In this document: piece after piece, positions 17,765-42,678 of the stretch
Layout of the letters: every line of letters begins with the position of its first letter
How positions within the stretch are numbered: position 1 is the first letter of the stretch
Assembly: GCA_023663635.1 (NCBI GenBank)
Contig: JAMPHD010000001.1
Span: forward strand, 390,383 to 454,382
Direction of reading: 5' to 3'
Source: Acetatifactor muris
GTDB taxonomy: Bacteria > Bacillota > Clostridia > Lachnospirales > Lachnospiraceae
DNA length: 64,000 nt
Position numbers and translations under genes: made by a program
The notes under the pieces: generated by a model
Database searches by the model: none
Seen by the model: the letters and a program-made list of their open reading frames with translations, nothing else
What the model was told of the DNA's origin: nothing

Positions 17765-18061
17765 TTATGATTCCGGTGTAATGGTAAGTGTGGTGCCGTT
17801 TACACTGTATGTTACCTGTGTGCCGAGTTTAGCGATCTGCGCGTTCAGCAGCGCGACCTGCGTGCCTAGTTGTGCGACCTGCGTGTCCAGCTGTGCGACC
17901 TGTGTGTCCAGTGAGGTGATCCGATCCTGCAGAGTGCTCCCATCGTCAAATTCCACATCGGATGCTTTTGTCCAAAACGAGATCCGTTGCCACAACATGG
18001 TGGTCTCGTCTATCAGTTTTCTGAACTTTCTTCCTGTTACGATTGTCTCATGAATTGCCAT
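17765..18061 (-). CDS. tail-fiber-tip-like protein (98 aa) with coiled-coil heptad repeats
   Basis: The C-terminus (LGTQVTYSVNGTTLTITPES) is homologous to the C-terminus of the 417-aa fiber (LGTQTTYSANGTTLYITPK), and the DNA is similar too. Internal 21-bp tandem repeats encode QLDTQVA units. Confidence 0.5.
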   Translation of the reverse strand: MAIHETIVTGRKFRKLIDETTMLWQRISFWTKASDVEFDDGSTLQDRITSLDTQVAQLDTQVAQLGTQVALLNAQIAKLGTQVTYSVNGTTLTITPES

Positions 18062-18109
18062 ATCAATCTTCCTCCTGTGAACTGTTTAATTTGCAATTGG
18101 TTTTCCGGT

Positions 18110-18592
18110 TTAAATCCAGATGGTATTTTGCGTGACATGGGGTGGTTCCAATTCATCTTTGGTCATCTCTGTATCTCCTATGAATATGCAAAGCATTTCA
18201 AAGGGATCTGCGGTATCATCCGCCGAGAACAACAGAATTGATTTGAGAGGTTCTTCCGAGTCCGTATCGGAAAATATGGATACTCCATAAGTTTTTTCCT
18301 CATAATAGCAAAAGGGCTGTTGTTTCACCGGCTTGCTCAGCAGATAGTCTTGAAGACTGTCGATACGATTCTCTATCAGGTTCAGAAAATTCGCAAAAAA
18401 TCCGTAAATACCTTCCTGTTGGTCTGCATGATCGCAAGCCGCATCGTATCGGCCCTGTGCCACAAGACTGTCATAGTGCCGCATGACCTCTATATTTTTG
18501 AGGTTTGTGTCTTGGAAAAATGTCATGGCATCCACATGGTCGGGATACCGGGATGCAGGATCACATAACATGGTCACACACCCCCTAACCAT
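18110..18592 (-). CDS. hypothetical phage protein
   Basis: The ORF lies in the minus-strand phage gene array. Its start is uncertain because it overlaps the upstream gene. Confidence 0.35.
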   Translation of the reverse strand: MVRGCVTMLCDPASRYPDHVDAMTFFQDTNLKNIEVMRHYDSLVAQGRYDAACDHADQQEGIYGFFANFLNLIENRIDSLQDYLLSKPVKQQPFCYYEEKTYGVSIFSDTDSEEPLKSILLFSADDTADPFEMLCIFIGDTEMTKDELEPPHVTQNTIWI

Positions 18593-18912
18593 ACATCGCC
18601 TTCAATGCCGTCGAAGTCTTGGGCATACTCGTCAAACCAGATGGTCTGCTGTTTTTGGCGGGCATATTTTTGCGTGTTATAAATCTCTTCTTCCCATGTC
18701 CGAAATGTAACGGCATCAACGATGTAATGGGATAAAATGTCCCGATTGGCCTCAATGATGCGGGCGGCCCGGTCATACAGGCCCTGTGCCCGCAGGTCAT
18801 TGATCTGTCGAACGATTTCGGCAATGCCGTCGTCCACATTTTTGAACTCATGTCTTATGATCTTCCGGGACGGAAAGCTGCTGAATTCATTTTCGAATCT
18901 CGCCATAATCAT
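18574..18912 (-). CDS. hypothetical phage protein
   Basis: A 112-aa ORF sits between tail genes. No motifs were recognised. Confidence 0.4.
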   Translation of the reverse strand: MIMARFENEFSSFPSRKIIRHEFKNVDDGIAEIVRQINDLRAQGLYDRAARIIEANRDILSHYIVDAVTFRTWEEEIYNTQKYARQKQQTIWFDEYAQDFDGIEGDVWLGGV

Positions 18913-18919
18913 TCCCTCC

Positions 18920-19462
18920 TTAGCTGAATGTCAGGCCGCTGAAATCAAAGTTTACGTAATTGGCTATATCGGAGTTGTAATTGTGAATGTCCGACCACCC
19001 TTTGCCACTGAATGTGATGGTGCGCCTGGTGATATAGCCGTCTATCCCAAACGGGCCGTATGTGCCTCCGTAATGCTCGCCTCCGGGTAAATGACAGATA
19101 ATACCCCCAATATCAACGTAAGAGTCATATTCGCTCTCCAACAAAAACGCAAAGTATCTGTTGGGGTCCGTGTAGATATGAAAGCTGCCGCTCACATGCG
19201 CCGGAGCGGAAGCATCAATGCCGGCAAGGATCACGGATCCGATGTCAAACAGGCCGCTATCCCAATCCACATTATTGTTGTAGGGGTATTTGGCCACACC
19301 GTTCGCGACAGTTGCCTTGCTCAAAAGCCACCTGACCACTGCCGAACTTCCGGGAACCGAATCCACTAACTTGTACATACCGTTCTGGTAGTTGATCTGT
19401 GTAATGGGTAAACCCGCATAAGATATGGTATCCAATTGAGTGCCATTGTAAAGTATTGCCAT
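18920..19462 (-). CDS. phage tail-associated protein (hypothetical)
   Basis: It immediately follows the tail fiber gene and is Gly/Tyr-rich, like receptor-binding accessory proteins. Confidence 0.45.
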   Translation of the reverse strand: MAILYNGTQLDTISYAGLPITQINYQNGMYKLVDSVPGSSAVVRWLLSKATVANGVAKYPYNNNVDWDSGLFDIGSVILAGIDASAPAHVSGSFHIYTDPNRYFAFLLESEYDSYVDIGGIICHLPGGEHYGGTYGPFGIDGYITRRTITFSGKGWSDIHNYNSDIANYVNFDFSGLTFS

Positions 19463-19474
19463 GTAATCCGCCTC

Positions 19475-20728
19475 CTATTTCGGTGTGATATAAAGGGTGG
19501 TGCCGTTTGCGCTGTAAGTTGTCTGTGTCCCGAGTCTGTTGTTGATATCATTGATCTGATTTTGAAGTGATACCAGGATGTCGTGGATGTGGTATCCTCC
19601 GGAATCATAGGTCGCGTTGGTTGCAGTGTCCGCATTTCCCTGCAGATTGCCGGCGAAAATCACGGCGCCAATCCGATTGAAATTACTGATATTCGGTTTT
19701 TCGCCATTGTCCAATTTAATCCCTTGAATATTCCCTGTTTTGACATATTTGTCGGATGCGGGGGCATTGGTTGGAGTTGTCGCTCCCGGAGCGAATCGGA
19801 ATTCAGCGGATTTGTAAAAATAGGTCTTATCTTCAAGACCACCTGCAATTTCTATGGATTTTGCGGCATGGAGATCAATATCCTGCGGGGACGAAAGACT
19901 CAGATCTGCTGTTAAATCTATCCAAGATCCCCCATTGGATTTCTGTTGCCCGCTTCGAATTGATATATTTTGGTTGGCTGATATTTCCACGTTATTACTG
20001 CTCACATTAACGCGGTTGTGGTCGTCGGTGAAAATTTTGATATCATTATCTCCAATTCTCACCGCACTGCTCCAATCGCCACTTGCGGTCCGAGTGCCAA
20101 TATCAAGCAGCGCAGACCCCTCCATGTCTATTTCATAGTTTCCGCTTTTGATCTTGCGCAGCTCGGTTATGTCATGGTTGTCCATAGACAGATCGCCCGT
20201 CAGTTTTCCCCCCGTAAGGGTTTGCGTATTATTGTATGGCGGAACCTGCCATGTCCCATCTTCTCTGAGATACTTAGACGTGCCTGCCGTAGTACCCGGC
20301 GAGGGAACCAGACCGGCCTTTGCGCCGGAGCCTGATTTTACAAAAATATCATAAGTTGTATCCGTTGTCTTAAATCCGCTGTCATTAGAAAGTTGGCTGA
20401 TCCTGGTAGGGATTGTCGGTCTGTTGGACAGATCGGTATAAGAACCGGTAAATGCCACAGTTTTTAAATCGGTCAGAAACTTCATTATCTTTCCAAACAG
20501 AATTGAGATCTTTTCACCGGATTTAATATTTTCTCTTGTCGCCGCTTGCGTAAAAGAAGGGGTCAGGTCATTTATGGACAGTTCTTTTTCGGACACCTTA
20601 TCAACCTTGAGATCCAATTTGTGCAGTTCAGAATCTATGATCAGATTATTTTTGTTGAAAACCTGAATATCATAGCGATCCGAAACAGCAGGGAGTTCCA
20701 AATTTTTATATTGACTGTATGTGGCCAT
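19475..20728 (-). CDS. phage tail fiber protein
   Basis: The N-terminus has a baseplate-attachment-like segment. Central repeats are Gly/Thr/Asn-rich. A C-terminal coiled coil ends in a tip motif. Confidence 0.7.
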   Translation of the reverse strand: MATYSQYKNLELPAVSDRYDIQVFNKNNLIIDSELHKLDLKVDKVSEKELSINDLTPSFTQAATRENIKSGEKISILFGKIMKFLTDLKTVAFTGSYTDLSNRPTIPTRISQLSNDSGFKTTDTTYDIFVKSGSGAKAGLVPSPGTTAGTSKYLREDGTWQVPPYNNTQTLTGGKLTGDLSMDNHDITELRKIKSGNYEIDMEGSALLDIGTRTASGDWSSAVRIGDNDIKIFTDDHNRVNVSSNNVEISANQNISIRSGQQKSNGGSWIDLTADLSLSSPQDIDLHAAKSIEIAGGLEDKTYFYKSAEFRFAPGATTPTNAPASDKYVKTGNIQGIKLDNGEKPNISNFNRIGAVIFAGNLQGNADTATNATYDSGGYHIHDILVSLQNQINDINNRLGTQTTYSANGTTLYITPK

Positions 20729-20759: not shown

Positions 20760-22520
20760 TTACTCTCCGCCAATGGAGACCAGTTCATCGTGGCTGTGTT
20801 GCCCCAACGCACCGTGGTAATATCCGCATAATGTCGTATGCCTCCCGGCTTTTTTCATCAACATTTCATACGAAGGGTAAAAGCGATACATCGTGATGGT
20901 GGTCGTAAAGCCCGCAAAATCATGGGAAATGGAAGAGATAATGTATTGCTGCTCTCTGTCGGAATCACTGCGCCGATAGGATAGCTTTTTATTTACATCC
21001 AAAAACGGCAGCAGAGCGGTTGTAATGGTAATATGATCTGTCAGTCGGCAGTTTTTCCAATTTTCCCATTTGGCCCTGTCAGCCGCCAGATTGTCAGAGG
21101 TAATGTTGTCATATTCCCGGCCCGTCTTTACTTCGGGTATCTCGCCGAGCTTTTCCACTGTAAAAGGAGAGTCGGAAACGATGGTCAGATCCACCCGATC
21201 ACAGTGATGAAATTTTTGAAAGTATTCTTTGGAATACAGCTCGCAGGACGTGCCATCGGGAGCATTCACGAATCGGTTGCCCTTTTGGCCGTTCGTGAGC
21301 ACGTTCATGGCATGTACCTGCCACTGACCTAACAGACAGACTTTGGTCAAGGTCTGTCCGTCTGCGGGCTTTTTGCGGATCTTGAAGGCATACACCCGGT
21401 TTGGCCGCAATTCATCCGCCTTCACGGCCTCTTGGGTTGTCTCATGGTAAATACCAACGGCACCCAGCCCGTTGATATTTATTTGTGCGTTTGCTTCGTT
21501 GGCGGCGGGAATCTTCAGAGCAATCACATCTCCGTTGCGGTAATCGTCTTCGTATCCCGCGATATAGGCAGTATAGAGCCGATCGGCATAAGTGCAGTCC
21601 TCGCTGTAGAAATCCGTTTCGATCACCTTTCCCCAGACTTCACAGATATTTCTCACGGTGGTCATATCCACAGAGGTGTTTTCTGAGATCAATACTCTTT
21701 GCAGGAAATCATTGTCCAACAAAATATCATCCTCATAACACAGAGGTTTTAACTGACAGATGAAAGTATTGTTCTCCATATCAAAAAACATCTCATAGTT
21801 GGGGTATAGATCGCGGAAAGCGGTCAGAATGGAGAGTATACTGCAGCCTGCGGAGAATTCTTGGTCGAAGGGAATGGCGTTCCAGTTGTCATGCTCTTTT
21901 CGATACTGTTGCCAGTTGTCGTTATACTCAGGCATGGCTTGTGTTTCCCCCATGTCATCAATTCTGTGGTTGGTGATCCCTGCCAATGACTCAAGTGTCT
22001 CGATGACCGCATTGCGGATGGTGTAGTATTCCTCCACCTCCCCGGTCTCCTCATTTTCCCGATAGGCCGGATAGCGGATGAGGAGAGCGCCGGCCTGTCC
22101 GTTCTTGGAACCGTCCAATTTCCTGATAAAATCAGCACAGTTGATCGTAAGGTTATTGGTCGTGGCATCATATACCCCGGACGCGTCCGTATAGACGTAG
22201 CAACCCAAAGGATAAAATTTGTACTCACGGGTTTGGGCATGATACAGACCGATGGATATGCGTATATCCTTGTTGAGCCATAACAGGCTGTTTTCAGTGA
22301 GTTTGAGTTTGTCCTTCAAAGTCGGCTGTACCACAAAATTGGCAGTGCGCCGTATGTCTGACTCGCCGGATATGGACATACTGCCGGCGGTGAGGCCGCA
22401 TTCCAATGTCCCAATGATCCGTTGATCGGAGTCCAACACTTCAATCCGCAGCTTTAACGCGGGTGCGGCCGATTGCCGTAAGACAATCAATAAATCTTCC
22501 TGTGTAATCCTGTCTGCCAT
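20760..22520 (-). CDS. phage tail protein (Tal-like, siphovirus tail endopeptidase family)
   Basis: This 586-aa gene immediately follows a Dit-like gene in the order TMP - Dit - Tal typical of Firmicutes siphoviruses. It shares an ATGA start/stop overlap with the upstream gene. Confidence 0.65.
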   Translation of the reverse strand: MADRITQEDLLIVLRQSAAPALKLRIEVLDSDQRIIGTLECGLTAGSMSISGESDIRRTANFVVQPTLKDKLKLTENSLLWLNKDIRISIGLYHAQTREYKFYPLGCYVYTDASGVYDATTNNLTINCADFIRKLDGSKNGQAGALLIRYPAYRENEETGEVEEYYTIRNAVIETLESLAGITNHRIDDMGETQAMPEYNDNWQQYRKEHDNWNAIPFDQEFSAGCSILSILTAFRDLYPNYEMFFDMENNTFICQLKPLCYEDDILLDNDFLQRVLISENTSVDMTTVRNICEVWGKVIETDFYSEDCTYADRLYTAYIAGYEDDYRNGDVIALKIPAANEANAQININGLGAVGIYHETTQEAVKADELRPNRVYAFKIRKKPADGQTLTKVCLLGQWQVHAMNVLTNGQKGNRFVNAPDGTSCELYSKEYFQKFHHCDRVDLTIVSDSPFTVEKLGEIPEVKTGREYDNITSDNLAADRAKWENWKNCRLTDHITITTALLPFLDVNKKLSYRRSDSDREQQYIISSISHDFAGFTTTITMYRFYPSYEMLMKKAGRHTTLCGYYHGALGQHSHDELVSIGGE

Positions 22521-23449
22521 TATTTATTCCACCATTCTGTTGTAATTTCCGACAGTCCCAGATAGTACAGGTCTTCCTCAGAGTTTACATCTCCGACTTC
22601 CATCCAGGACCAGGATATTTGCCTGTCGTTGTAGGACCGATCGGCCGTGTCGGCAGGGTTGTCGGTCACTTGGATGATCCATAATCTGCCGTCCGGCAAT
22701 TTGAGAATCTTGGGTATGCCGTCGCAGAGAAAATCCATAAACTCCCGCTGATATTTAACCCGTTTGTAATCGTGCTTTTTACTATAGGCCGGCTCACAGT
22801 ACGCATCGTCCGCAAGAGGGACAAAAGATCCGCTGCAGTTGCCGGTTTCATAGTTGGCGATGGTATTACGAACCCAAACAGGATATCTGCCATTCAGCAG
22901 GGTAACGGCAGAAGAGGGGATATTGCGGGTGGTGTTGCACAACCCATCCGTCATCTCCGTGCCCCAGACAAGATTCCCCTCGATCAGAAACATCTTGTGA
23001 AATTGAGAGGTGACTTTAGTGGCGGCATAGGGTCCTTCACTGCCGTACAGCACGGGCACGATGGCATATTCCACCGGCTGTCCGGATGCCACGAAATAGT
23101 CCGGATAGTTCAGAACAAAATCTTCCACCGCATGTATCTCTTTGACGGCCAGGGTCTTCCAACGGAAATTTCCCTCTGTCCGACTCTTCAGGATGATATG
23201 GGATGTGGTCTCCGGACTCCAGTCTATGTTCCCGGCATTGGTGTTGTTTTCGAATCGTGCCCACAGCACTGTGTCAAAATCCCATTCCTCCGGACGAAAA
23301 CCTTCATATGCAAAATCCACGGCTGTGGTGATATAGAGATCATCGTAGATTCCCTCCTGCAGTTCCACATACCGGATGTCAGCGATGTCGGTGGGGGTAA
23401 GCGCGCAGGCCAACTCCCCGCCGATCCAATTACTTCCACAGATAAACAT
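22520..23449 (-). CDS. phage distal tail protein (Dit-like)
   Basis: It is 309 aa. Its position and size fit a Dit, and it is translationally coupled to the Tal-like gene. Confidence 0.6.
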   Translation of the reverse strand: MFICGSNWIGGELACALTPTDIADIRYVELQEGIYDDLYITTAVDFAYEGFRPEEWDFDTVLWARFENNTNAGNIDWSPETTSHIILKSRTEGNFRWKTLAVKEIHAVEDFVLNYPDYFVASGQPVEYAIVPVLYGSEGPYAATKVTSQFHKMFLIEGNLVWGTEMTDGLCNTTRNIPSSAVTLLNGRYPVWVRNTIANYETGNCSGSFVPLADDAYCEPAYSKKHDYKRVKYQREFMDFLCDGIPKILKLPDGRLWIIQVTDNPADTADRSYNDRQISWSWMEVGDVNSEEDLYYLGLSEITTEWWNK

Positions 23450-23454: not shown

Positions 23455-24486
23455 TTAATCACCTCCCACGAAAGCATTTAGTTGCCAGACATTGCCCCGA
23501 TGTCTGAGGATAATGGACACCATGTCTGAATTGTCAAAGAGCATTTCATCCGAGTACAGAAGATACCGGGATGCCCCGACAGGCACCAACAGGCGAAATC
23601 TCAGTTTTCCGTTGGTATAAATGCGCGAGCTCAAGACCGGACCCTGACCGCCGTTTTTCATTTTAAACAGCTCGGCAGTCTGCCACAGATTTGTCCCCCG
23701 TATGAGGACCGTGAAATCGTCCGGGATCACAAAGCCTTTGTCATAGTATAGTGTCCTGTTTCTGAGGTCGATCATACCGTCCGTATACTCGAAGGAATCC
23801 GTACCGTTGTACTGAATGACGATCAGATTGCCGGACACCTGTATGCAGCCCTGAGACGGAAGGGGAGTGGCATAAATGCGCGCGTAAGTGTTGGGATTTT
23901 CATATTTCACCTGAATTTCCACATATCCGGTGTCCAATTCCATTCCGTTTACCGTCATTCCGACACAGCGGATATAGTAGAAAGTATTATTGTCCAATCC
24001 CCTGTAGGTATAACTGATGTCCCGGTCGTCTGTCAGTTCGTCACTGGCGGCCAATTGTTTCTTGGACATATCATACAGATAGAAGACATATTTGCTGATC
24101 TTTTCCCAGTCCTCGGAATAGTAGTGTACGGTCGCGGTGAATGAGGGATTGGAGATCACGGGATCGTCACCCGGATTGTCAAAACGGAACTCCGGTGTCG
24201 CAAAGGTCCTAAAAAGCACTTTGTCGGACAGGGCGGACGGGATGTTCTCCGCATCATAGATCTGTGCCTGAATGATATATTGGCGATTATTGGTCAGAGT
24301 GTAAGCCGGTACGGTATGTCTCAGCGTATAAGAAGATACCGTGTCGTCCCAAACCACCTGATTGGTGTCGTTATCCGATATGATAATGCGATTGGTCTGC
24401 GCCCGGCTGCCTGTCCATGAGATGGATATCTCAAAGCTGTTGTTGGCGTCAAAAGGGTTGATTTTGGATATGATAGGACGTGCCAT
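23455..24486 (-). CDS. phage tail component (hypothetical)
   Basis: A 343-aa beta-rich protein lies between the TMP and the Dit-like gene. Confidence 0.5.
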   Translation of the reverse strand: MARPIISKINPFDANNSFEISISWTGSRAQTNRIIISDNDTNQVVWDDTVSSYTLRHTVPAYTLTNNRQYIIQAQIYDAENIPSALSDKVLFRTFATPEFRFDNPGDDPVISNPSFTATVHYYSEDWEKISKYVFYLYDMSKKQLAASDELTDDRDISYTYRGLDNNTFYYIRCVGMTVNGMELDTGYVEIQVKYENPNTYARIYATPLPSQGCIQVSGNLIVIQYNGTDSFEYTDGMIDLRNRTLYYDKGFVIPDDFTVLIRGTNLWQTAELFKMKNGGQGPVLSSRIYTNGKLRFRLLVPVGASRYLLYSDEMLFDNSDMVSIILRHRGNVWQLNAFVGGD

Positions 24487-24531: not shown

Positions 24532-24789
24532 TTATAGTATTCCGCAGATGTGGATGCCGTTCAGGTCTCCGCAGGGCTCTTTGACCCACACCTTCTGTCC
24601 GGCGCTCAAATGAACATCGGGGATGCTGCATCCGACAATCCTCTCGCTGCCGGTCTCATCCAAGACCGTGAATCCTTTGGCACCGGCCCGCAGGATGACG
24701 GACCGGTAGGTCCGGTCCGCCTTGTACTCAGCTGCCTTTCTGTCGATCATGGTTTGAATTGATTTGAGGATTTCCGCTTTAAAATCCAT
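24532..24789 (-). CDS. small hypothetical phage protein
   Basis: An 85-aa ORF on the same strand in the tail module. Confidence 0.35.
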   Translation of the reverse strand: MDFKAEILKSIQTMIDRKAAEYKADRTYRSVILRAGAKGFTVLDETGSERIVGCSIPDVHLSAGQKVWVKEPCGDLNGIHICGIL

Positions 24790-25009
24790 TGCGATATCAC
24801 CCCCTTGGAATAGGTATTTGAGGACATATTAAAAGAGCAGAAGAATATGGATTCTCCTGCTCCTTTAAATAGGGTGTTATTGTTGGTAGTTACCCGGATA
24901 TTACGAAATTAAGCAATGTGTACGTCCGCAAAAATCATTTTTCCTCTCATTCCCATATCCTCCTTATCATTGATTATATAATACCATTTTACGTTGCTAA
25001 AATCAACAA

Positions 25010-26074
25010 CTATTTATCCAATAGCACAACGGTTACGCCATCATACCTAAAAATCCAGTCGGAAAAGCAGATATTCACATTTGAATCTGAGCTATTATTG
25101 GCAGAATCATCCGCGTTATCCAAGAAACCGAAGGCATCCACTGCAAGCCGATATTTATCTTGTTGTATTACGGAATAGATCAATGAAAAATTTTGGCAGG
25201 GTTTGCCGACCCGAAAGGTGGAAATCCTGTCGTCTTTGGATGTTCTGGTGACATATTTCACACTTACGGTCGTTTCTTTTTGGTTGTTGATTTCGATAGG
25301 TTTTTTGTAAACATATTCCATAGAGGAATCATATTGATTCTGCTCATCCAAGTGACGCATTTTAGGATCCTCCCCCAGGCCATAGTCATCGGATGAGATT
25401 GAGACACCATTAATTTCCACCGATTCTATTTCATATGGCTGTAAACCGGAAATGGTCTTGGATTTAAATTGCCCCAAACTATAGTTCGTGATCGTGAATG
25501 TGTTCTCATAAGATTTTAATGAGACTTTTCGGGTAATCACTTTCTCTATATAAGTTTCTTTAACATTGCATGAAACGACAAAGGTGCAGTTGCAGAAATA
25601 ATAGTCGCGGATGGTATCTATCAGTCGGGACCTTATGTTTTGAAACATATTGTGTACACTGTCATAGGGAAAGAATAACCGCCGTTCCAAGGCGTTACAC
25701 ATGGCAGTTTGTATGTCGGCCGGTAAATTCTCATAAAATTCCGGCGCGGAGACTACATCATTCATAATGATATCCGATACCAACGCATTCTTGGAGTTCA
25801 CTTCTATCAAAAGCCCTAAGAGTAAATTTGCTCCAAACAGAGATATAAAGATAAGCAATATGTCCTTTCCGGTCTGTAGCATTGCGATCTTGGTGGTATC
25901 CATGGATTGGGCTTGTACCATGCCTTCTATATTTAAAAAGAAGGTGCATAATATATACGCGATCGCACAGATTACCACCAAGGCAACGGATAAGTATATG
26001 GAACTTTTCTTTATGTAGAACTTTTGAATAAGTTTTGACATTTTAGCGTCTCCTATGTTCTGTAATGCAATCAT
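25010..26074 (-). CDS. AT-rich moron: membrane-anchored protein (2 N-terminal TM helices plus a soluble domain)
   Basis: It has strikingly low GC compared with neighbours. It is inserted between the TMP and the distal tail genes. Confidence 0.55.
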   Translation of the reverse strand: MIALQNIGDAKMSKLIQKFYIKKSSIYLSVALVVICAIAYILCTFFLNIEGMVQAQSMDTTKIAMLQTGKDILLIFISLFGANLLLGLLIEVNSKNALVSDIIMNDVVSAPEFYENLPADIQTAMCNALERRLFFPYDSVHNMFQNIRSRLIDTIRDYYFCNCTFVVSCNVKETYIEKVITRKVSLKSYENTFTITNYSLGQFKSKTISGLQPYEIESVEINGVSISSDDYGLGEDPKMRHLDEQNQYDSSMEYVYKKPIEINNQKETTVSVKYVTRTSKDDRISTFRVGKPCQNFSLIYSVIQQDKYRLAVDAFGFLDNADDSANNSSDSNVNICFSDWIFRYDGVTVVLLDK

Positions 26075-30305: not shown

Positions 30306-30310
30306 TGCCC

Positions 30311-30337
30311 GGGGCGGTCTTCCGTAAGGAGACCGCC
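30311..30337 (+). terminator. stem-loop immediately after the zinc-ribbon ORF
   Basis: The hairpin gggcggtct/agaccgccc is a 9-bp stem. No clear T tract follows. Confidence 0.35.
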
Positions 30338-30896
30338 CTGATTTAACATATGGGCTGCATATGATATATGTTTTGATTTTTACCCGTTGGCCGAAACACT
30401 GCGGCCAAGCGCATCACTGAAAATCATAAAATCGCAATGCGCACTATGCATTACCGGTAGACTGCATTATGGCTGCGGTCTGCCGGGAGGATGGGTATGT
30501 CTGTGGGGATTGCTCTCTCCGTCAGGGAGAGTGCCGTCCTGCTCGTTATCCATTGTCCGCGATACTTAGGCGTCCGTGGGTTCTCACCCGCGTTACCGTA
30601 TATCAACATGACCGGTTTTTTCTGCTTTCGCAACCGCGTCCGCAATGAGGGGACTGTGGTCCGACATGTGTTAGCCGGATGGCTCCGGTCTTACCCGAAA
30701 GTAAGAGATTTTCAAGCATTTACTCCTCCATGTACAGTTTATACTCCGCTTAAAGTGTTTGCAGAGTCTTATTAAAAACCCCATGTATCCACAGACTTGT
30801 ACGCGGCGCCGTTATGCCGTTTTCTTGTCTGTGATCGCCCGACCAAAATCCCCCGCCAAAGTGATTCCGATCATGTCACCCCGCGTTGCCGCGGGG

Positions 30897-32835: not shown

Positions 32836-33141
32836 TCATTTCTTCGGGCCGATGATCTGCTCCACTGCCTGTCTGACCTTGTCATAGGAAGTCATACTCA
32901 CCAGACCTGCAGCCAGTCCCATCAGGATCAGACAGATCATGTTGTTGACCGTGAACGGAATGGCGTTCAGGCGGTAGAAGACGGCAGTACCGCCCCCGCC
33001 TATGACGAGGGCGGTGATCATTGCCGCGAGATTGTAGGGCAGATTGACTCTGTCAGTGATGAGAGTTTTAACGGCCTCCGTGACGAGACTGCTGATCGCG
33101 GAGAGAAGAGACAGCAAAATTAAAAACATGGTAGTGTTCAT
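32836..33141 (-). CDS. phage holin
   Basis: It is 101 aa with two or three TM helices and a charged C-terminus. It is immediately downstream of the endolysin. Confidence 0.7.
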   Translation of the reverse strand: MNTTMFLILLSLLSAISSLVTEAVKTLITDRVNLPYNLAAMITALVIGGGGTAVFYRLNAIPFTVNNMICLILMGLAAGLVSMTSYDKVRQAVEQIIGPKK

Positions 33142-35358: not shown

Positions 35359-35628
35359 TCAGGTTCCCATGATATCGTCCAATACCTTCCGGGCGCTCTC
35401 TTTGTAAAGCGCCCGGTCGGACAGATCCAGATCGGAGAGCAGATTTCTCGCCTCTTCCCCGGTGATGATATGATTATGGTAGTCTTTCAGGATCATGAAG
35501 ATTTGGTAGTGCGCGGGAGTGTCTGTCAGCACCCGCCAGGATGTGAATGCTTTGGACTTGGAGCAGCTGTCACAGGCATGATATCCCTTTCCGCACAGGA
35601 CACACCAATGATTGATCTCTCCGGGCAT
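35359..35628 (-). CDS. small zinc-binding protein (hypothetical)
   Basis: It has a CVLCGKGYHACDSC motif. It is translationally coupled between neighbouring genes. Confidence 0.4.
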   Translation of the reverse strand: MPGEINHWCVLCGKGYHACDSCSKSKAFTSWRVLTDTPAHYQIFMILKDYHNHIITGEEARNLLSDLDLSDRALYKESARKVLDDIMGT

Positions 35629-36395
35629 CAGTTGGCCACGATCACACTGAAGAGGTCGGTTCCGTCATCTTCACAGTAATCCTTCATGAAGTCGATGGAG
35701 AAACTGTGCTTGCCCGTTCCGGTCAGAGCCGTCTCGATGGATGAGGGATCGATCTTGCCTTTCTTGGCCACGATGGTACCGGCATACTTGATGTTCTCGT
35801 TGCACATGTCCTTGAAGATTGCGAAGATCTTCACGCCGACAGCCTCGGGGAAGTTCTCGGTATTGTTGACCACACGGACGGCGCCGGAGGTCTCGTACTC
35901 ATACTCCACATAGATCTTGCCGGTCACATCGGTGGGCACGGTGATCTCCCGGTCTGCGATGGTGAACTCGGACTCACTTGCCATTGCGCCCAAGGTAAAC
36001 TTTTGGGCGAGCTGACCGCTCTCAAGCTTATAGATGTACTTCACGTCATTCAGCGGTTTGTGGGACAGGGTGATTCTGCCGTCTTCCACGGTGAGAATTT
36101 CCTCCACGGGCACCCGGATCTTGTGATCCTCGTCCGCGATCTCCTTGTCCGTGCCATACTGCAGCGCCAACAGATCCATGCTGAACAGAGAGTTGGTGGC
36201 GGAGAAAGTGCCGGTCTTGGCCCTAAACAGTTTCGTGATCAATGCGCCCTGCGCGTTGGTGATCTCCTCGCCCTCGGCTGCAGTCTGCAGACTGGGCTCC
36301 TCCAGGTTGGTCAGACGGCCGATCACGGATCCGTCGGACAGGTCAGTGAAGATAAGGCTGCGCACCCTATCAAGAATCAGTTCGTTTACGTTCAT
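35628..36395 (-). CDS. phage structural protein (putative major tail/tube protein)
   Basis: It is 255 aa, acidic and beta-rich. Position and size are consistent with a sipho tail tube. The assignment is tentative. Confidence 0.4.
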   Translation of the reverse strand: MNVNELILDRVRSLIFTDLSDGSVIGRLTNLEEPSLQTAAEGEEITNAQGALITKLFRAKTGTFSATNSLFSMDLLALQYGTDKEIADEDHKIRVPVEEILTVEDGRITLSHKPLNDVKYIYKLESGQLAQKFTLGAMASESEFTIADREITVPTDVTGKIYVEYEYETSGAVRVVNNTENFPEAVGVKIFAIFKDMCNENIKYAGTIVAKKGKIDPSSIETALTGTGKHSFSIDFMKDYCEDDGTDLFSVIVAN

Positions 36396-36439: not shown

Positions 36440-37201
36440 TTATTTGAGTTCTCCCATCCAGTTTAAAGCGTCTTTGTCGATCCGGTTAAGGTTCACGCCA
36501 AAGCCCGAGTAGCCGCTCTGTAGGAGCAGGGTGGCGTTTTTGATCCGTTCAATCCTCTGTACGCTGTCCATAAAGGGATATATTTTCATGTCAAACACGG
36601 TGTGATGATCCTGCTTGAAACCCTCCGAGTTGACCATGGCGGATATCAGCGGCAGCAGATAAGAATGCGGTGTCATGCCCTTGCTTTGTTCATAGTTCTC
36701 TCTTGCCTCCTCTATTAGGATTCGGCGGGTGGCCTCATTGCCGGGGACTTCTTCATTGCGCCTGAGCCGGTGCATCTTACGGACGGCGGTTACAAGGGCA
36801 TTGTAAACGTAGCGGTCGATCCGCGGTTGCCTGTCCGGTCCGGATTGCGGCGCAAGAATGACTTCTTTGAGGTTCTCGTCATAGGTCGGTTGCATTTGAG
36901 ACAGATCCATGGAGTCACCCAGAAGGATGGCGGTGGACTTTCGGGGCAGTTGAGCGGACAGGAGAGAGGTAAACAGCTCAAAATCCGATATCCGAGTGTA
37001 ATCGATTCCCATGTCGTCTAATTGCCATTTCAGATCCGCGCCCACGGAGCACATCATCCGGACCATGTGAAAATATTCCGTCTCGCCGTACTCGCATATC
37101 TCGCGCAGAGTGGGCTGTCTGATGGAGATATGTTCATTGATTCGCAGATCGTCACCGCGATACAGTTTCAGTTCGTCGATTTGGTTTTCCGATCCCATCA
37201 T
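36440..37201 (-). CDS. hypothetical phage protein
   Basis: Choosing an internal Met start (MMGSENQ...) gives tight coupling to the HU-like gene stop. Confidence 0.4.
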   Translation of the reverse strand: MMGSENQIDELKLYRGDDLRINEHISIRQPTLREICEYGETEYFHMVRMMCSVGADLKWQLDDMGIDYTRISDFELFTSLLSAQLPRKSTAILLGDSMDLSQMQPTYDENLKEVILAPQSGPDRQPRIDRYVYNALVTAVRKMHRLRRNEEVPGNEATRRILIEEARENYEQSKGMTPHSYLLPLISAMVNSEGFKQDHHTVFDMKIYPFMDSVQRIERIKNATLLLQSGYSGFGVNLNRIDKDALNWMGELK

Positions 37202-37202: not shown

Positions 37203-37532
37203 TTAACCTGCCTTTCCCGAGTGTCTGTTTTCAAAGAGTTTGCGGTTGATCTTTTCACTAAAGTATTTGGACAGACAGATTTTAGTCTTCACATGTGCCG
37301 GACAGTCGATATCCCGGAACATGCCCTTGGAATAGTTCTTTCGCGCCACATAGTTCCTTCGAATCTGTATGCCGCTAAACAGCTTAATGCTGACGTCCTC
37401 CGTCGGAGTGACTGAAACAAGACGGTCAAAAATGATTTTTTCCGCGGTCCGAAACATTTGTTGGACGATTGCCACATCCATATTTCCGCTTTCCGCGATC
37501 TGTCTGATCAAAGTATCCTGTGTGATGTTCAA
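37203..37532 (-). CDS. HU/IHF-like nucleoid DNA-binding protein (phage-encoded, diverged)
   Basis: The N-terminus (MNITQDTLIRQIAESGNMD...) and length match the HU fold pattern. Synteny with yonO recalls SPbeta yonN. Confidence 0.55.
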   Translation of the reverse strand: MNITQDTLIRQIAESGNMDVAIVQQMFRTAEKIIFDRLVSVTPTEDVSIKLFSGIQIRRNYVARKNYSKGMFRDIDCPAHVKTKICLSKYFSEKINRKLFENRHSGKAG

Positions 37533-37658: not shown

Positions 37659-40307
37659 TCATGCATGGCGCTGTCTTTGTTTTTTGGCTCTCTCATATTC
37701 TCTGTCATGAATCTGCCTGCAGTGGGGGCATCTGCGGGTGCGCCTGTTGGAGAGATCCACCTCAAACCACTCTCCGCAGTCCTCGCATTGCACGAATTTG
37801 GTCTGCGGAATACTGATGTTTCGTGTCAGATTGTTCACAATATATTGTCCGTAGCAGAACCAGAGCAACTGTTTATAACGCTTTTGTCTGCCGTACAGAT
37901 ATTCTACCAACATATCCGTGACCGTTTCATCGGAGTATCCGAAACTGTGGAATTGTTCCCTCATCTGCCCGGCAATATAGTGCAGATTATCGATGTATTC
38001 ATCTTTGCGGTTGATCATGTACCGATACTGTCTGTTCAGGCTGTCGTACAGGTCGGCAACTTCCCTGCTGCAGACCATGGTCTTGTTACACATCATATTT
38101 CGATGATCGAGCGGGGCAAGATCCATGGAGCGGGTGTTGATGGGACTGTTGGGAATCCGGTCATAGATTCTGTTGACCAGACTGCCGTTTCGTGCCTGTA
38201 ACTGCGAATCTTCCTTATCTTTGGCGTATGCAAAGAATGCGGGGAGTTTCGCCTGAGTGTACTTGGCGATCCGTTCCCTGACTTCCCGGGGAAATTCCGG
38301 CTTATACAGGGTCTTGGCGAAGTCGATCACAAAGTTGTTTTGGCAGCACAGTTGCCGAACGCAGTCCAAAGCCTCCCGTTTTTCTTTTTCCGAACCGGAT
38401 AGGAAGACTTCATGATTCCAAATCTTGGAGATGCTGTTGCTGTAGGTGCCGATATTGCCTCCCGTGAAGGCCGCATATAATCCGTCATAGATTGTCTGAG
38501 GCGTCAGCGGGGTCGGCTCTGACTTGCGCATATTGTAATAGAGGGGGACAATGCCTTTCATATTGCGCTCCGCAACGCGGATAAAATCTTCATCCGCTAC
38601 CACCAGGGCTTTATCGCCATCCACATCGTACATTAAGATCTTGCTGATCAGATCATGGGTGCTCGCGTAGAGACCGTCCGTAGTGAACCATTCTCCGATC
38701 CGGTCGGCCCGTTCGCCGTATTCCACACAGGCCGCATTGATGCGTATGGCATGTTCCTTATACAGATGCGGACTCCGCAGACAGTCCAACCGGGGATGCC
38801 TTCTAAACATCCGGCAAAACACCTCATGATCCGCCAACAGGCCTTTCGGTTGTGGCGCGTGTCCGAACCAGTGCTCACAGGCGGCATAGAAATCGGGTAG
38901 CAGAAAGGCGTATTTGCCGTTTATTTCCAATCGGCCGCTGCGATATTTTTGCACAAGGCTGTTTTTGATGTCCCGTATCATGTCCTTGGTATAGGTGTCG
39001 TTGAGCAGAGCGGGGTACATTTTTACGGATTTTTGAAAGGCCGTCATGTCGGTGTTGTAGGGAGTGATGCCCAGTATTTCAATCATGGTCTCGCGGGAAT
39101 TGCATATATTGCGGATGCGTTCGGACGATCTTCGGGTGATCAGATCGACTTCCTCATCCGTTACGTCAGTGAGCGTCTGCAGCATCTGGTAATTGATCTT
39201 GGCATTCCTGCCCCTCTGTTCTTCTCTGTTGCATATTCCCGCGCGACAATGGTATTTTTTGAAACAGTCCTTGTACTCATCCCAGGAATCGTAGTACCGG
39301 TACATCTTAAACTGACTTTTGGTAAAAATAATGCGGATGTCTTCCTCTATAATATTGTGCTCTCTGCCGTACAGGTCCGTGATGACGGGAGAGCAGTCGT
39401 TGACCGTCACAAACTTTCTAAAGTCGAATACGCCCAACAACCCCTTGATCCAAGGGGCGCGGAACATGAAATTTTTGTCGGAGACGTAGGGGAGCATCAT
39501 GCCGGCTCCGTCAGTGTGGGGAATCGGTATGTAGTCGGATTTTCTTGTGATGGAATAATCCGTTTCGTCCACGAAGTCAAAGGTGCCATATACATTCGTC
39601 TCAAAATCATCCACCACGATGGTCCGGTCGATATCAAAATCTCTCCACTCGGTGGTGGCAGAGTTGGTCAGAGCCATATAGGCCAGATGCTTATTGACAT
39701 TATTGCCGCCCCGTGAGTTGATCCTGTCGATGGTGAGTCCGCACATGACGGAGGATTCGATCCGATTCCACACGGTCTCTTTGATAAAGACAGCCTTCTT
39801 CTTGCGGATCTGCCCGGCTGAGGAGGTAAAGTACCGATATCGCTCACCCGCATACATAAAGCCGTGGAAGGCAATATCCTTAAAAATGTCAAAGTAGTAC
39901 ACCTGAACGATCATCAGCGCGTCCGTCAGTTCATCCCGGCCGATACCGATGGCGCGGCTGAGATAGGAGTCGAAGACGGAGACGATATCGGTATCTTTCA
40001 GACTGCCGTCTCGGACGCTGCGGATATGGTCCCGCCCGGCAGTCCGCTCATTTTGTGACACTTTGTGGGACAGAAGGGTCAACATTTTCTCTTTGGTTTC
40101 CCTGATCTTAGCCTTCTTATGCGTAGTAAGGTTCTCCCAATGTCTGCGGGCAGCAGGTGACATTTCCGTTTGGACTTTGGTACGGCTGTCCCTGAGTTGG
40201 AGAAGTTCGCAGCGATACCTGCGGATCCGGTCATGCAGATTCTGCTCGCGGTTACTGTAAAAGTGTGCCGTATCTATGGAATAGACATAATATAATTGGT
40301 CCTGCAT
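37659..40307 (-). CDS. YonO-like single-subunit DNA-dependent RNA polymerase homolog
   Basis: It is 882 aa. It contains the DVDGD (DxDGD) catalytic metal-binding motif of double-psi beta-barrel RNAPs and a C-terminal CxxC...CxxC zinc ribbon. It lies adjacent to an HU-like gene, as in SPbeta yonO-yonN. Confidence 0.6.
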   Translation of the reverse strand: MQDQLYYVYSIDTAHFYSNREQNLHDRIRRYRCELLQLRDSRTKVQTEMSPAARRHWENLTTHKKAKIRETKEKMLTLLSHKVSQNERTAGRDHIRSVRDGSLKDTDIVSVFDSYLSRAIGIGRDELTDALMIVQVYYFDIFKDIAFHGFMYAGERYRYFTSSAGQIRKKKAVFIKETVWNRIESSVMCGLTIDRINSRGGNNVNKHLAYMALTNSATTEWRDFDIDRTIVVDDFETNVYGTFDFVDETDYSITRKSDYIPIPHTDGAGMMLPYVSDKNFMFRAPWIKGLLGVFDFRKFVTVNDCSPVITDLYGREHNIIEEDIRIIFTKSQFKMYRYYDSWDEYKDCFKKYHCRAGICNREEQRGRNAKINYQMLQTLTDVTDEEVDLITRRSSERIRNICNSRETMIEILGITPYNTDMTAFQKSVKMYPALLNDTYTKDMIRDIKNSLVQKYRSGRLEINGKYAFLLPDFYAACEHWFGHAPQPKGLLADHEVFCRMFRRHPRLDCLRSPHLYKEHAIRINAACVEYGERADRIGEWFTTDGLYASTHDLISKILMYDVDGDKALVVADEDFIRVAERNMKGIVPLYYNMRKSEPTPLTPQTIYDGLYAAFTGGNIGTYSNSISKIWNHEVFLSGSEKEKREALDCVRQLCCQNNFVIDFAKTLYKPEFPREVRERIAKYTQAKLPAFFAYAKDKEDSQLQARNGSLVNRIYDRIPNSPINTRSMDLAPLDHRNMMCNKTMVCSREVADLYDSLNRQYRYMINRKDEYIDNLHYIAGQMREQFHSFGYSDETVTDMLVEYLYGRQKRYKQLLWFCYGQYIVNNLTRNISIPQTKFVQCEDCGEWFEVDLSNRRTRRCPHCRQIHDREYERAKKQRQRHA

Positions 40308-40317
40308 ACTGTGCCTC

Positions 40318-40836
40318 CTATGCCAAAATGTCAGAGTGGCGCCTGTTGCGGCGGGGCTTTATGTCGAGCCATACTTCCCAGTAGCCGTCACAATAGCGGG
40401 TCCGCAGGGTGTCGGGATAGAATTTGGCCAGCTCCATGATCTGAAAAATGTAATAGCAGTAATCTTTCCGACCTGCACGGATATTGTCCGACACATCGCT
40501 TATGTAGGCGCAATATCGCTGCCAGTTGGTGGGACCGCTGTATTGGCCTCTTGTCTCCTCATTCCAGAGGCCGGATTCCTTGGAGTAATGACCGGTCGGA
40601 CGGTTTATATGATCCGGGCAGGGGGTGATGAACAGTTTTCTCAGATAAAATTCTTTCTGCCATTTCTCATCGGTGAGAGCAGCGGAGGGCCTCCCGTCAG
40701 TATTGGATATCAGTTTCCTGCGTTTCAGTTCTTCCAATCCCATGGCCCTGTACCGCTGTTCGGCCCGGGCGATCGTCTCATCGGTATGCGGGCATACCGG
40801 CGCAAAATATGGAGTTGTCTGTGTGATTGTTGTCAT
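40318..40836 (-). CDS. hypothetical protein (Cys/Tyr-rich)
   Basis: An AAGGAGGA ribosome-binding site precedes the ATG at 40836. It is the first gene of the minus-strand operon downstream of the SOS-box region. Confidence 0.45.
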   Translation of the reverse strand: MTTITQTTPYFAPVCPHTDETIARAEQRYRAMGLEELKRRKLISNTDGRPSAALTDEKWQKEFYLRKLFITPCPDHINRPTGHYSKESGLWNEETRGQYSGPTNWQRYCAYISDVSDNIRAGRKDYCYYIFQIMELAKFYPDTLRTRYCDGYWEVWLDIKPRRNRRHSDILA

Positions 40837-40928
40837 GTGTCTCAAATCCTCCTTAGTTGGTTGAATCAGGTGGCGGTATGATATATTTCTCCGTTTTGCC
40901 GGGAACACATCTCAAAAAATCCAATTTT

Positions 40929-40980
40929 AGAACAAATGTTCGAAAATTTTATTGACAAATCAGAACGCATGTTCTATACT
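40929..40980 (+). promoter_or_regulatory. divergent promoter region with two LexA/Cheo boxes (AGAACAAATGTTCG, AGAACGCATGTTCT). The second lies in the spacer of TTGACA-17-TATACT.
   Basis: Direct read. The GAAC-N4-GTTC pattern is the Gram-positive SOS box consensus. Confidence 0.6.
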
Positions 40981-41027
40981 GACATTGTAAAGAAATTTGA
41001 GCAACAAATATCGGGATCAGGTGGTGG

Positions 41028-41591
41028 TTGGAAATGGAACAAATGCTAAATGCTTATTATGCGGATAATGCGTCCAAACTGCATAGGACAGTGGATCGGA
41101 TCCTGCAAAAGTATGGCGGTTTATCAGGTAAGGACAGAGATGATTTCTATTCACTTGCCAATGAGGTGTTCGCGGAGGCCATAAAACGTTATGACCGGTC
41201 GCAGACCTTTGACGGTTTTCTGTATATCTGTCTGAATAATCGCATTAAGACGGAGATAACGCGAAGAAATCGAGAGAAACGTAAGGTGGACAGAGTATGT
41301 ATTTCCATGGATATGCCGATCGGTGACGATGAAGATTCCACTTTGGCAGATGTGATCACGGATGATTTTAACTTGGAGGAAACGGTGTTGGCCGGATCAA
41401 ATGAAGGGTACGGCAAACGACTGTCAGCGTATCTCGCCAGATTGTCAGAGTTGCAGAGGAGGGTGTTGAGACTGGATGCCGCAGGCTATCTGCCCCATGA
41501 GATCAGGGAGAAACTGCAGATTACGGAGAGACAGTATGCGGATTGCAACGCAGCAATCCATTCCTACAGAAATATATCACTGTTGCTCTGA
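41028..41591 (+). CDS. group-5 (TcdR/UviA/BotR-like) alternative sigma-70 family factor
   Basis: It is 187 aa with region 2 (YD...FxxY) and a region 4 HTH (LSELQRRVLRLDAAGYLPHEIREKLQITERQ). It sits directly downstream of the LexA-box promoter. Confidence 0.72.
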   Translation: MEMEQMLNAYYADNASKLHRTVDRILQKYGGLSGKDRDDFYSLANEVFAEAIKRYDRSQTFDGFLYICLNNRIKTEITRRNREKRKVDRVCISMDMPIGDDEDSTLADVITDDFNLEETVLAGSNEGYGKRLSAYLARLSELQRRVLRLDAAGYLPHEIREKLQITERQYADCNAAIHSYRNISLLL

Positions 41592-41610
41592 TGAAAAGGA
41601 GGGCATCAAA

Positions 41611-42678
41611 ATGGCAAAACCGCGCAGACAGACTTATACGATGGATATGTATCTCCATAAAGTGTCGGATGCCGACATTCGCAATGACGCGGATGTGCAG
41701 AGGCAATTTATCTGGAGCAGGGAGCAGATCGATGAACTGGTGATGACGGTCCTTGCGGATGACTATATTCCGCCGATCGTCCTCGGAGAGGAGGACAGTT
41801 CCCAATTGTGGATCGTGGATGGCGGACAGCGCACGATGGCTTTGGCCAAATTTCGTTATGGGAATCATAAGATCATTCCAGGGAAGAAGAACTCACGAAT
41901 TTCCTATAAGAAGAAAGAACGGGATGATTCAGGCAAGATCGTATGGGAGGACGCCGTCTGCGATATTCGCAATAAGACTTATGACAAACTGCCGGAGGAG
42001 CTGAGAAAGCAGTTTAATGAATATCAGATAGAGACGGTCATTCATGAACACTGTGACAACCATAGGATCTCCCAACTGATCAAAAGATATAACAATCACA
42101 CTGCAATGAACACGAATCAGAAGGCATTTACCTATATCGATCGTTTTGCCAGGGATATCCGCGAGATCTCGGAGAGCGGTTTCTTTGTGGAATACAGTGA
42201 GTATTCCGAGAAGGAGAAGAGCAAGGGGGTGGTGGAACGCGTGATTGTGGAGACCGTGATGTGTACCAATCACTTGAACGATTGGAAGAAACAGACCGGA
42301 GCGATCTGCATATATTTGAACCGGAATGCCGCAAAGGAGGAGTTTACAGAGCTGGCAGAACGGATTCATCGACTGGAACGGGTGATCACGGAGGATATCA
42401 AAAGTATATTTAACAGCAGGGATTCCTTTTTGTTCCTGACTTTGTTTGAACGATTTACAAGGTCGGGAATGGAGGATGTGCTGTTTGCGCAATTCCTGAG
42501 AGAATTTAAAAACCACCTCAGACAGACGAGGATGGATGGTGTGCTATTTGACGAGACAGGCAAGGAGAAAGGGAGTAAGAACAAGGCGGTCATTCTTGCC
42601 AAGTTGGACATATTGGAAAGGATGATGTGGGATTTTTTGCGGTCGGAGGAGGAATCCGATAAAAATAAAATGCGATAA
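41611..42678 (+). CDS. DUF262 (ParB/Srx-like nuclease superfamily) domain protein
   Basis: It has the LWIVDGGQRTMAL (DGxxR) signature. An AAAGGAGGG ribosome-binding site is present. It is co-oriented 20 bp after the sigma gene. No DUF1524/HNH-like C-terminal domain is apparent. Confidence 0.62.
   Translation: MAKPRRQTYTMDMYLHKVSDADIRNDADVQRQFIWSREQIDELVMTVLADDYIPPIVLGEEDSSQLWIVDGGQRTMALAKFRYGNHKIIPGKKNSRISYKKKERDDSGKIVWEDAVCDIRNKTYDKLPEELRKQFNEYQIETVIHEHCDNHRISQLIKRYNNHTAMNTNQKAFTYIDRFARDIREISESGFFVEYSEYSEKEKSKGVVERVIVETVMCTNHLNDWKKQTGAICIYLNRNAAKEEFTELAERIHRLERVITEDIKSIFNSRDSFLFLTLFERFTRSGMEDVLFAQFLREFKNHLRQTRMDGVLFDETGKEKGSKNKAVILAKLDILERMMWDFLRSEEESDKNKMR

Follow-up and report, generated by a model that had tools for sequence, protein, structure and literature searches.

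The 64-kb window analysed here, that is, the whole stretch of Acetatifactor muris DNA under study, contains at positions 17765-42678 a phage-like element of ~25 kb, delimited by the exact ends of the first and last open reading frames (ORFs) of the block, in which genes for a phage tail and for lysis are combined with a phage-type RNA polymerase (RNAP) and with a sigma factor placed behind putative LexA boxes, and which appears to be headless. Its ~24 ORFs are all intact and tightly packed; the minus-strand block running from 40836 down to 17765 has its main gaps, of ~590 bp and 220 bp, at 30306-30896 and 24790-25009. The preliminary description of this DNA had reported a lower-GC tail cluster, and its tube, tape measure, tips and fibres were all confirmed; the GC content is 0.39-0.52 across most of 18-30 kb and 37-43 kb and 0.54-0.60 in the left flank, while the stretch at 30-37 kb (0.50-0.57) is host-like. 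The ORFs of the window were compared with the family profiles of PHROGs and Pfam, and also with NCBIfam and PADLOC. The genes and sites that bear most directly on the nature of the element are as follows, L numbers denoting related loci:

19475..20728, minus strand: fibre-like protein, 417 amino acids (aa) (phrog_21765)
20760..22520, minus strand: tail-tip protein with DUF5048, 586 aa (phrog_1887 'tail protein'; PF16467, E=3e-44; 71% identical in L022)
22520..23449, minus strand: tail-tip protein, 309 aa (phrog_27355, E=4e-48; 69% identical in L022)
23455..24486, minus strand: FN3-repeat tail-tip protein, 343 aa (354 homologues at 67-74% identity)
26119..29673, minus strand: tape-measure C-part, 1184 aa, rich in coiled coil (60% identical in L022)
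30897..32150, minus strand: tape-measure N-part, 417 aa (PF10145, E=5e-18; 12 tape-measure PHROGs)
32836..33141, minus strand: holin-like membrane protein, 101 aa (phrog_34925, phrog_1299 holin)
33143..34180, minus strand: endolysin with Glucosaminidase and Amidase_3 domains
34191..35327, minus strand: NifS/IscS-type cysteine desulfurase inside the late operon (Aminotran_5, E=2e-47; phrog_12787; SspA/DndA-like in PADLOC)
35628..36395, minus strand: tail tube protein of the YomU family, 255 aa (phrog_2729; precomputed PF27173 YomU_Tube)
36440..37201, minus strand: conserved alpha-helical protein directly upstream of the tube gene, 253 aa (phrog_4051; YomV family by transitive evidence)
37203..37532, minus strand: divergent HU/IHF-like protein, 109 aa (TTG start, AGGAGG ribosome-binding site)
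37659..40307, minus strand: YonO-type single-chain two-barrel RNAP, 882 aa (PF05183; phrog_8308, E=9e-246)
40867..40904, minus strand: conserved motif CAAAnGGAGAAaTAtAtA upstream of the polymerase operon, candidate sigma-dependent promoter
40929..40980, plus strand: two LexA (Cheo) boxes, AGAACAAATGTTCG (40929-40942) and AGAACGCATGTTCT (40962-40975), with the promoter of the sigma gene
41028..41591, plus strand: sigma-70-family factor, 187 aa (Sigma70_r2 and r3 matches)
41611..42678, plus strand: DUF262/GmrSD_N (ParB-like) protein, 355 aa, at the right edge of the element (PF03235, E=1e-12; PADLOC NsnA-like, E=3e-14)

The tube protein is 72-82% identical in relatives and gives a weak direct match to SPbeta YomU (25% identity, E=0.001). 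When all proteins of the element were compared by BLAST with those of SPbeta and phage D-1873, the RNAP and the tape-measure N-part were the sole matches, and no tail protein besides the tube showed BLAST similarity to SPbeta; the tail is therefore not SPbeta-like at the BLAST level. The 253-aa protein upstream of the tube has 870 homologues, those in L023 and L025 bearing PF27211 YomV_2nd, and its comparison with SPbeta YomV by hhalign profiles was not significant. Its predicted model, with a predicted local distance difference test score (pLDDT) of 80, found no fold match in PDB, which leaves its candidacy as a tail terminator unsupported. The more distant homologues of the tape-measure C-part include fused proteins of 1776-2028 aa with PF10145. 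At the tip, the 343-aa protein was modelled (pLDDT 81.5) as two FN3 domains and a beta-sandwich, its best fold matches being FN3 folds and FN3-bearing minor tail proteins of siphoviruses; the labels Dit and Tal proposed earlier find no support. Sequence searches of PDB with the tube, the protein upstream of it and the DUF5048 protein gave no match, and no sheath family was matched in the profile searches of the window. The holin and the endolysin are both present, as had been described.

Profiles of terminase, portal, capsid, scaffold, connector, integrase and replication families in PHROGs and Pfam had no match in the window, and the head proteins of a complete relative, L010, had none there by tblastn. 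Likewise, no MrpR-type repressor, recombinase or attachment site was found in the window, which was also searched without success for att-like direct repeats and for a repeat derived from tRNA-Leu. Searches with the SPbeta head proteins YonB-YonG were confined to the related loci, the window being covered by the other searches. With host genes on both flanks, these results uphold the earlier statement that terminase, portal, capsid and integrase are missing; contiguous head genes and frameshifted tail ORFs were both looked for, and neither was found.

Homologues were collected with the tube as anchor (species-representative genomes and IMG/VR) and with the RNAP as anchor (metagenomes and IMG/VR), the tape measure, the protein upstream of the tube and the 343-aa protein serving as further anchors; proteins of the window, head proteins of L010 and those of SPbeta were mapped onto every related locus. 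The relatives form two classes. Class A consists of complete SPbeta-like phages, mostly contigs of 100-170 kb from human-gut metagenomes along with some prophages in contigs of megabase size. Their genes follow the order RNAP, (HU), YonJ, YonG, YonF terminase, portal, YonD-like, scaffold-like and YonB-like capsid proteins, and, after an interval, h169, the helical protein, tube, (89 aa), NifS, lysis genes and tape measure; an MrpR-like repressor gene, a control gene different from that of the headless class, ends locus L159 and an integrase stands at the end of another (L161). The head block between RNAP and tail (YonJ, YonG, YonF terminase, YonE portal, YonD and YonB), present in more than 100 relatives, is absent from the window and from the other headless loci. 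In these, which make up class B, DUF262 and sigma genes read one way, and a (small gene), RNAP, HU, helical protein, tube and the following genes read the other; at most 1-4 kb separate the RNAP from the tail genes, with no head match. Besides the window, class B comprises at least 17 loci from diverged genomes (L004-L009, L011, L012, L016, L023, L025, L027-L029, L032, L055 and L090, of which L023, L025, L027-29, L032, L055 and L090 come from metagenomes), and 9 of the 13 tube-anchored loci of species-representative genomes belong to it. The comparison across related genomes called for earlier thus yields a recurrent headless layout and a separate class of complete phages, attachment sites not having been found. 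At the sigma-DUF262 end of headless loci, where neighbours are visible, lie core host genes, namely pheS/pheT/queA (L090), a tRNA methyltransferase gene (L023) and ackA (L028), so that head genes are not hiding beyond the regulators. Since the same layout under a LexA-box sigma factor recurs in at least 17 other genomes, we take the element to be maintained rather than random prophage debris.

Among relatives the tip core is conserved and the fibres vary. The locus L022, from Lachnoclostridium, has a collinear tip module (60-71% identical) with a different fibre, a 782-aa Peptidase_S74 protein of which the N-terminus alone is conserved in the fibre-like protein of the window. One claim of the preliminary description did not hold: the position of the lysis genes upstream of the tape measure had been regarded as unlike a normal prophage, yet the complete relatives L010 and L157 have the same order, which is therefore a trait of the lineage and no sign of domestication.

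Some relatives deserve mention for their own arrangements. In L026, rny/recX adjoin the tail end; it was not counted as headless, since its upstream end is not seen. Its positions 1-22100 hold two tandem modules of tape measure and tip genes (tape measures of 1548 and 1517 aa); in both, a DUF6558 protein and large tip proteins come after the tape measure, an arrangement resembling tailocin loci with duplicated specificity modules. L161 and L162 share the same junction of tail end and rlmN-rsmB, with a tyrosine integrase in the former (17656-18789) and a 61-aa ORF in its place in the latter (9518-9751); the pair may be a snapshot of prophage fixation.

By tblastn, the RNAP is 40.7% identical to SPbeta yonO and 44% identical to its counterpart in Clostridium phage D-1873, over 97-99% of the length, and the earlier YonO-like assignment is thereby secured. 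In SPbeta, YonO transcribes the late structural and lysis operon, and its homologues exist in the 'main genomes' of firmicutes, with no role assigned (PMC5467207). The protein named HU-like in the preliminary description matches the whole Pfam Bac_DNA_binding domain collinearly (2-90 of 90 positions), but with a weak score (E=0.009) and 22% identity to HBsu; the position of its gene corresponds to those of yonN and hup beside the RNAP, and homologues in relatives (29-57% identity) follow the RNAP as well. In many complete gut phages (L062-L065, L075, L076, L141-L143, L146, L149, L150) the RNAP match comes in two pieces ~1 kb apart, much like SPbeta relatives annotated with yonO_1 and yonO_2 around a GIY-YIG nuclease gene, suggesting that a mobile element, be it an intron, an intein or a homing-endonuclease gene, has entered the gene of the polymerase.

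The sigma factor belongs to the sigma-70 family, through generic matches to regions 2 and 3; its best NCBIfam models, those of the ECF superfamily and SigH, all score far below cut-off. The TcdR/UviA-like affinity proposed earlier is therefore not established, no TcdR model or reference having entered the comparison. Homologues of the sigma factor (30-61% identity) and of the DUF262 protein are confined to class B. The DUF262 gene lies directly downstream of the sigma gene in the same orientation and always adjoins it in headless loci, and in two of them both are fused in one ORF: L090 (7758-9533, minus strand, 591 aa) and L028 (8075-9823, minus strand, 582 aa). Such fusions imply that the two proteins act together and that selection on them continues; we know of no earlier description of a sigma-DUF262 fusion.

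The divergent intergenic region of 119 bp contains the sigma promoter TTGACA-17-TATACT (40952-40980, plus strand), the second-best site of sigma-70 type within 14.5 kb. One of the two LexA boxes, AGAACGCATGTTCT, is situated inside the promoter spacer and the other, AGAACAAATGTTCG, just upstream of the -35 element, their cores GAACAAATGTTC (40930) and GAACGCATGTTC (40963) bracketing and overlapping the promoter. The Cheo box consensus, CGAAC-N4-GTTCG, derives from B. subtilis DinR/LexA. Perfect GAAC-N4-GTTC sites number three in the 64 kb, against 0.9 expected, and two of the three are those at the sigma promoter; the third (8737-8748), ~45 bp upstream of scpA, may be a host SOS box or due to chance. 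Perfect LexA boxes are found 45-120 bp upstream of the sigma start in 13 of the 14 loci with a sigma homologue, usually paired ~33 bp apart in the same arrangement of -10, box and -35, and they are the sole perfect boxes in those loci of 3-23 kb. The LexA-box promoter noted earlier is thus a conserved feature, and Cheo boxes over the sigma promoter fit a placement of the operon in the LexA (SOS) regulon, with LexA as the putative ligand. A second conserved motif, CAAAnGGAGAAaTAtAtA or, in some loci, AAATGTAGAAGTA, lies between the sigma promoter and the first gene of the polymerase operon in all 13 headless loci that were aligned, even where the RNAP is only ~21% identical to that of the window. 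Because sigma is the shared component whichever type of RNAP is present, the motif is taken as the target of sigma.

Orthologues in the window and the other headless loci are full-length, without internal stops. Synonymous divergence (dS) between them is saturated (>2 or undefined), nonsynonymous divergence (dN) is 0.12-0.36 and dN/dS is ~0.05-0.14 where computable. In at least 17 headless loci the signs of maintenance expected of tailocins, that is, recurrence, full-length orthologues and low dN/dS, are present. Most of the headless loci whose enzyme is of YonO type fall, in the RNAP tree, into a single deep clade with long branches, to which a few complete phages also belong; L055 stands outside it, and a different type of RNAP is found in L005-L012 and L016. 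Together, the tree and the RNAP types indicate that head loss or module exchange happened more than once.

We regard the element as probably a maintained, inducible, tail-producing one of F-type tailocin-like character, a headless and chromosomally fixed derivative of the SPbeta-like temperate phages of gut Clostridia, as its gene content suggests. In the scheme we propose, LexA would sit on the two boxes over the sigma-A-type promoter of the sigma-DUF262 operon, and SOS induction with LexA cleavage would free expression of sigma, together with DUF262. Sigma would then steer the host RNAP to the conserved motif before the divergent operon, as its positional conservation suggests, and the YonO-type RNAP, by analogy with SPbeta, would transcribe the ~23-kb late operon for the tube, cysteine desulfurase, endolysin, holin, two-part tape measure, tips and fibres. 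Tails would assemble, the holin and endolysin would lyse the producer for their release, and the fibres would presumably aim them at related bacteria. The DUF262 partner, the cysteine desulfurase, a Cys-rich 89-aa protein and an antisense zinc-ribbon gene have no part assigned to them in this scheme. Further, and more tentatively, the headless loci may represent an undescribed family of F-type tailocins in gut Lachnospiraceae and Oscillospiraceae, domesticated from SPbeta-like phages and keeping the YonO-type RNAP, with a three-tier cascade from LexA through sigma (sometimes fused to DUF262) to the phage RNAP; such a family would also account for the 'orphan' homologues of YonO that have been noted on chromosomes since 2003 and 2017. 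A literature search returned no paper combining YonO with tailocin or tail-like terms and none describing tailocins of Lachnospiraceae.

In function, the closest known systems are the Gram-positive F-type tail-like bacteriocins (monocin, efagins) and the F-pyocins, and by descent the SPbeta-like phages; the comparison with the former is based on PMC11830787 and bioRxiv 10.64898/2025.12.13.693970. Like the F-type tailocins, the element has chromosomal genes for a non-contractile tail of siphovirus type (tube, tape measure, tip and putative receptor-binding fibres) and a lysis cassette, without head, packaging, replication or integration genes, and probably a DNA-damage trigger. It differs from them in its SPbeta lineage, with YonO-type RNAP, HU-like protein, LexA-box sigma plus DUF262 and cysteine desulfurase, in the placement of its lysis genes between tube and tape measure and in its two-ORF tape measure; sequence similarity to monocin or efagin there is none, as far as tested or known. 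With the SPbeta-like phages, including gut phages of 100-170 kb and Clostridium c-st/D-1873, it shares a YonO orthologue with an HU-like gene after it, the same conserved gene ahead of a YomU-family tube gene, and late genes in one long co-oriented block. Unlike them, it is of ~25 kb rather than ~130 kb, has no YonJ-YonA head and packaging block, MrpR-type repressor, recombinase or early and replication regions, and carries LexA boxes and a sigma gene that were not found beside the RNAP in complete phages. Judged by its predicted products, the element shows what is expected of a tailocin, a non-contractile tail without sheath, no head genes and a lysis cassette of its own; it is not a complete SPbeta-like prophage, since head block, MrpR and recombinase are all missing.

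DNA damage turns on a sigma-like factor, Xpf or UviA, in PBSX of B. subtilis and in the UviA-controlled bacteriocin BCN5 of C. perfringens, and this factor drives late, bacteriocin and lysis genes; PBSX makes heads and uses an Xre repressor, and BCN5 is a soluble bacteriocin. In the element, in contrast to both, LexA boxes stand at the promoter of the sigma gene itself and a second RNAP, of phage type, comes in between; its sigma factor is not established as a member of the Xpf or UviA/TcdR groups.

Several observations weigh against a tailocin-like element of this kind. Particles, induction and killing are predictions, the evidence here consisting of genes; both ends of a headless element are seen in the window only, and the search of the host for head genes covered the 64-kb window. 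The element yielded no recognisable Dit, Tal, tail terminator or chaperone pair of the canonical kind, and its tape measure is split in two ORFs by an antisense gene, an arrangement that also occurs in complete relatives. The position weight matrix of the motif proposed as the target of sigma is AT-rich and not specific genome-wide or in AT-rich phage DNA, so that its assignment as a sigma-dependent promoter follows from position only. Headless loci occupy different chromosomal sites, the junctions between RNAP and tail differ, the loci are interleaved with a few complete phages on the RNAP tree and two very different RNAP types occur among them, all of which is compatible with repeated recent derivation from phages. 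In addition, a decayed remnant does exist (L024, tape-measure genes only).

As a first alternative, the element might itself be a defective SPbeta-like prophage, its head and integration modules deleted and the remainder decaying without selected function. The integrase, att repeats and head genes not found in the window, the low-GC insertion inside the tail module and clear remnants among the relatives (L024, and L162 without the integrase present in L161) all point that way, as does a tube equally close to that of the complete phage L010 (80%) and those of other headless loci. Decay, however, would not be expected to leave every ORF intact and tightly packed, nor to yield at least 17 loci with the same headless layout, class-specific regulators and LexA boxes at saturated dS and a dN/dS of ~0.05-0.14, and the sigma-DUF262 fusions imply continued selection. 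We consider the remnant explanation unlikely; between the two possibilities left by the preliminary description, tailocin-like or defective prophage, the comparative data favour the former, with a putative bacteriocin function.

The tails might, alternatively, serve heads made elsewhere, either in a split prophage or a system resembling gene transfer agents, or as a tail donor for the capsids of other elements or of co-resident SPbeta-like phages. Retention of the protein that stands upstream of the tube in complete phages, together in L011 with the h169 gene preceding it, would suit such a role, complete relatives with tubes 80% identical circulate in the same habitat as the headless elements, and the host genome was searched for head genes within the window. 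Yet no headless locus examined has a head-tail connector, portal or packaging gene, neither a precedent nor a packaging signal was identified, and, in the manner of an autonomous tailocin, the element brings an SOS switch and lysis genes of its own, all of which makes a service to heads made elsewhere improbable in our view. Least credible of all is the idea that 17.7-48 kb holds a small but complete phage, with head and packaging genes too divergent to be recognised. There are ORFs without a family match (172, 169, 354, 180, 160, 317 and 140 aa), but these are all too short for a terminase or portal, and the proteins whose size would suit a capsid (343, 309 and 354 aa) are encoded in the tail-tip block, where one has an FN3 fold and one is missing from L022; moreover, the head genes of complete relatives are easily recognised as SPbeta-type and match nothing in the window.

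To judge from the genes, the novelty lies in a tail-only element that descends from the SPbeta line, carries a YonO-type RNAP of its own together with a conserved LexA-sigma(-DUF262) switch, and is widespread in gut Clostridia. Tailocins are strain-specific killing devices of which little is known in the dominant anaerobic gut Firmicutes. If our interpretation is correct, this SOS-triggered family would be a new participant in the competition among strains of the microbiome, and programmable antibacterials of narrow spectrum could be drawn from it. It would also be the first tailocin-type element with its own non-canonical RNAP, and it would give a biological role to the chromosomal YonO homologues, left open by PMC5467207. 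The family also offers natural material on promoter finding by YonO-type enzymes, on the role of the sigma-DUF262 fusion and on the reduction of phages to tail-only elements, for which the coexistence of complete and headless relatives with 80% identical tubes should be helpful.

The remaining genes of the element are:

17765..19462, minus strand: four small distal genes, 180, 112, 160 and 98 aa, the 98-aa product being a coiled coil
24532..24789, minus strand: conserved 85-aa protein (61% identical in L022)
25010..26074, minus strand: low-GC (~0.43) membrane protein, 354 aa, an insertion between the tape-measure C-part and the tip genes, not in L022
29727..30305, plus strand: antisense zinc-ribbon gene between the tape-measure parts, 192 aa
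32376..32822, minus strand: conserved protein after the lysis genes, 148-169 aa (phrog_4257; homologues in both classes)
35359..35628, minus strand: Cys-rich 89-aa protein, conserved after the tube gene
40318..40836, minus strand: first gene of the RNAP operon, 172 aa, no family match

Homologues of the 172-aa protein, ~28% identical, precede the RNAP in complete phages, and one that is 58% identical is present in L055. Most headless loci start the polymerase operon with a small protein, unrelated to it, that bears a conserved DH(T/S)xFGG...SDF motif (L005, 5211-5447; L007, 5120-5374; L011; L023, 2919-3113; L032, 8751-8951; L090). The cysteine desulfurase gene, conserved in complete and headless classes, adjoins that of the Cys-rich 89-aa protein. 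The antisense gene, whose product has a C-terminal zinc ribbon, occupies the same position in L005, L012, L013, L015, L016 and L022-L026, again in both classes; a 23-nt repeat common to this gene and the sigma promoter region resembles a chance occurrence. The 354-aa membrane protein, without a match in Pfam, PHROGs or PADLOC, may be a moron, immunity or defence gene. At the distal end, the 3' end of the 98-aa gene repeats that of the fibre gene (repeat D1, 17770-17828 and 19477-19535, 80% identical).

To the right of the element a second stretch of low GC content (0.35-0.46; 42718-48048) holds genes for a 140-aa protein, a CPBP/Rce1-like protease with TetR, a 317-aa orphan, MerR-DUF1648 and a RelB/YafQ toxin-antitoxin pair. 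It terminates at tRNA-Leu(aag), with neither a tRNA-derived repeat nor an integrase found there, and Rfam detected only tRNA in the window. This stretch is probably an island of older date that has nothing to do with the tail element; the part at 42.7-47.9 kb was left out of the element because it is not common to the relatives. No synteny was seen between the flanks of the window and those of other loci, and the DUF6056 neighbour in the window has no sequence relationship to the DUF6020 neighbour in L022. The left flank (1-17.7 kb) carries scpA/scpB, a D-Ala-D-Ala carboxypeptidase gene, kduI/kduD, an rpiB-like gene, the KDPG aldolase gene (eda), kdgK and the gene for the DUF6056 membrane protein, and the right flank, beyond 48.3 kb, genes for GNAT, an EamA transporter, histidine kinases and similar host functions; at 53326-54877 (minus strand) in the latter, a GH25 lysozyme gene adjoins a PD-(D/E)XK transposase-like gene.

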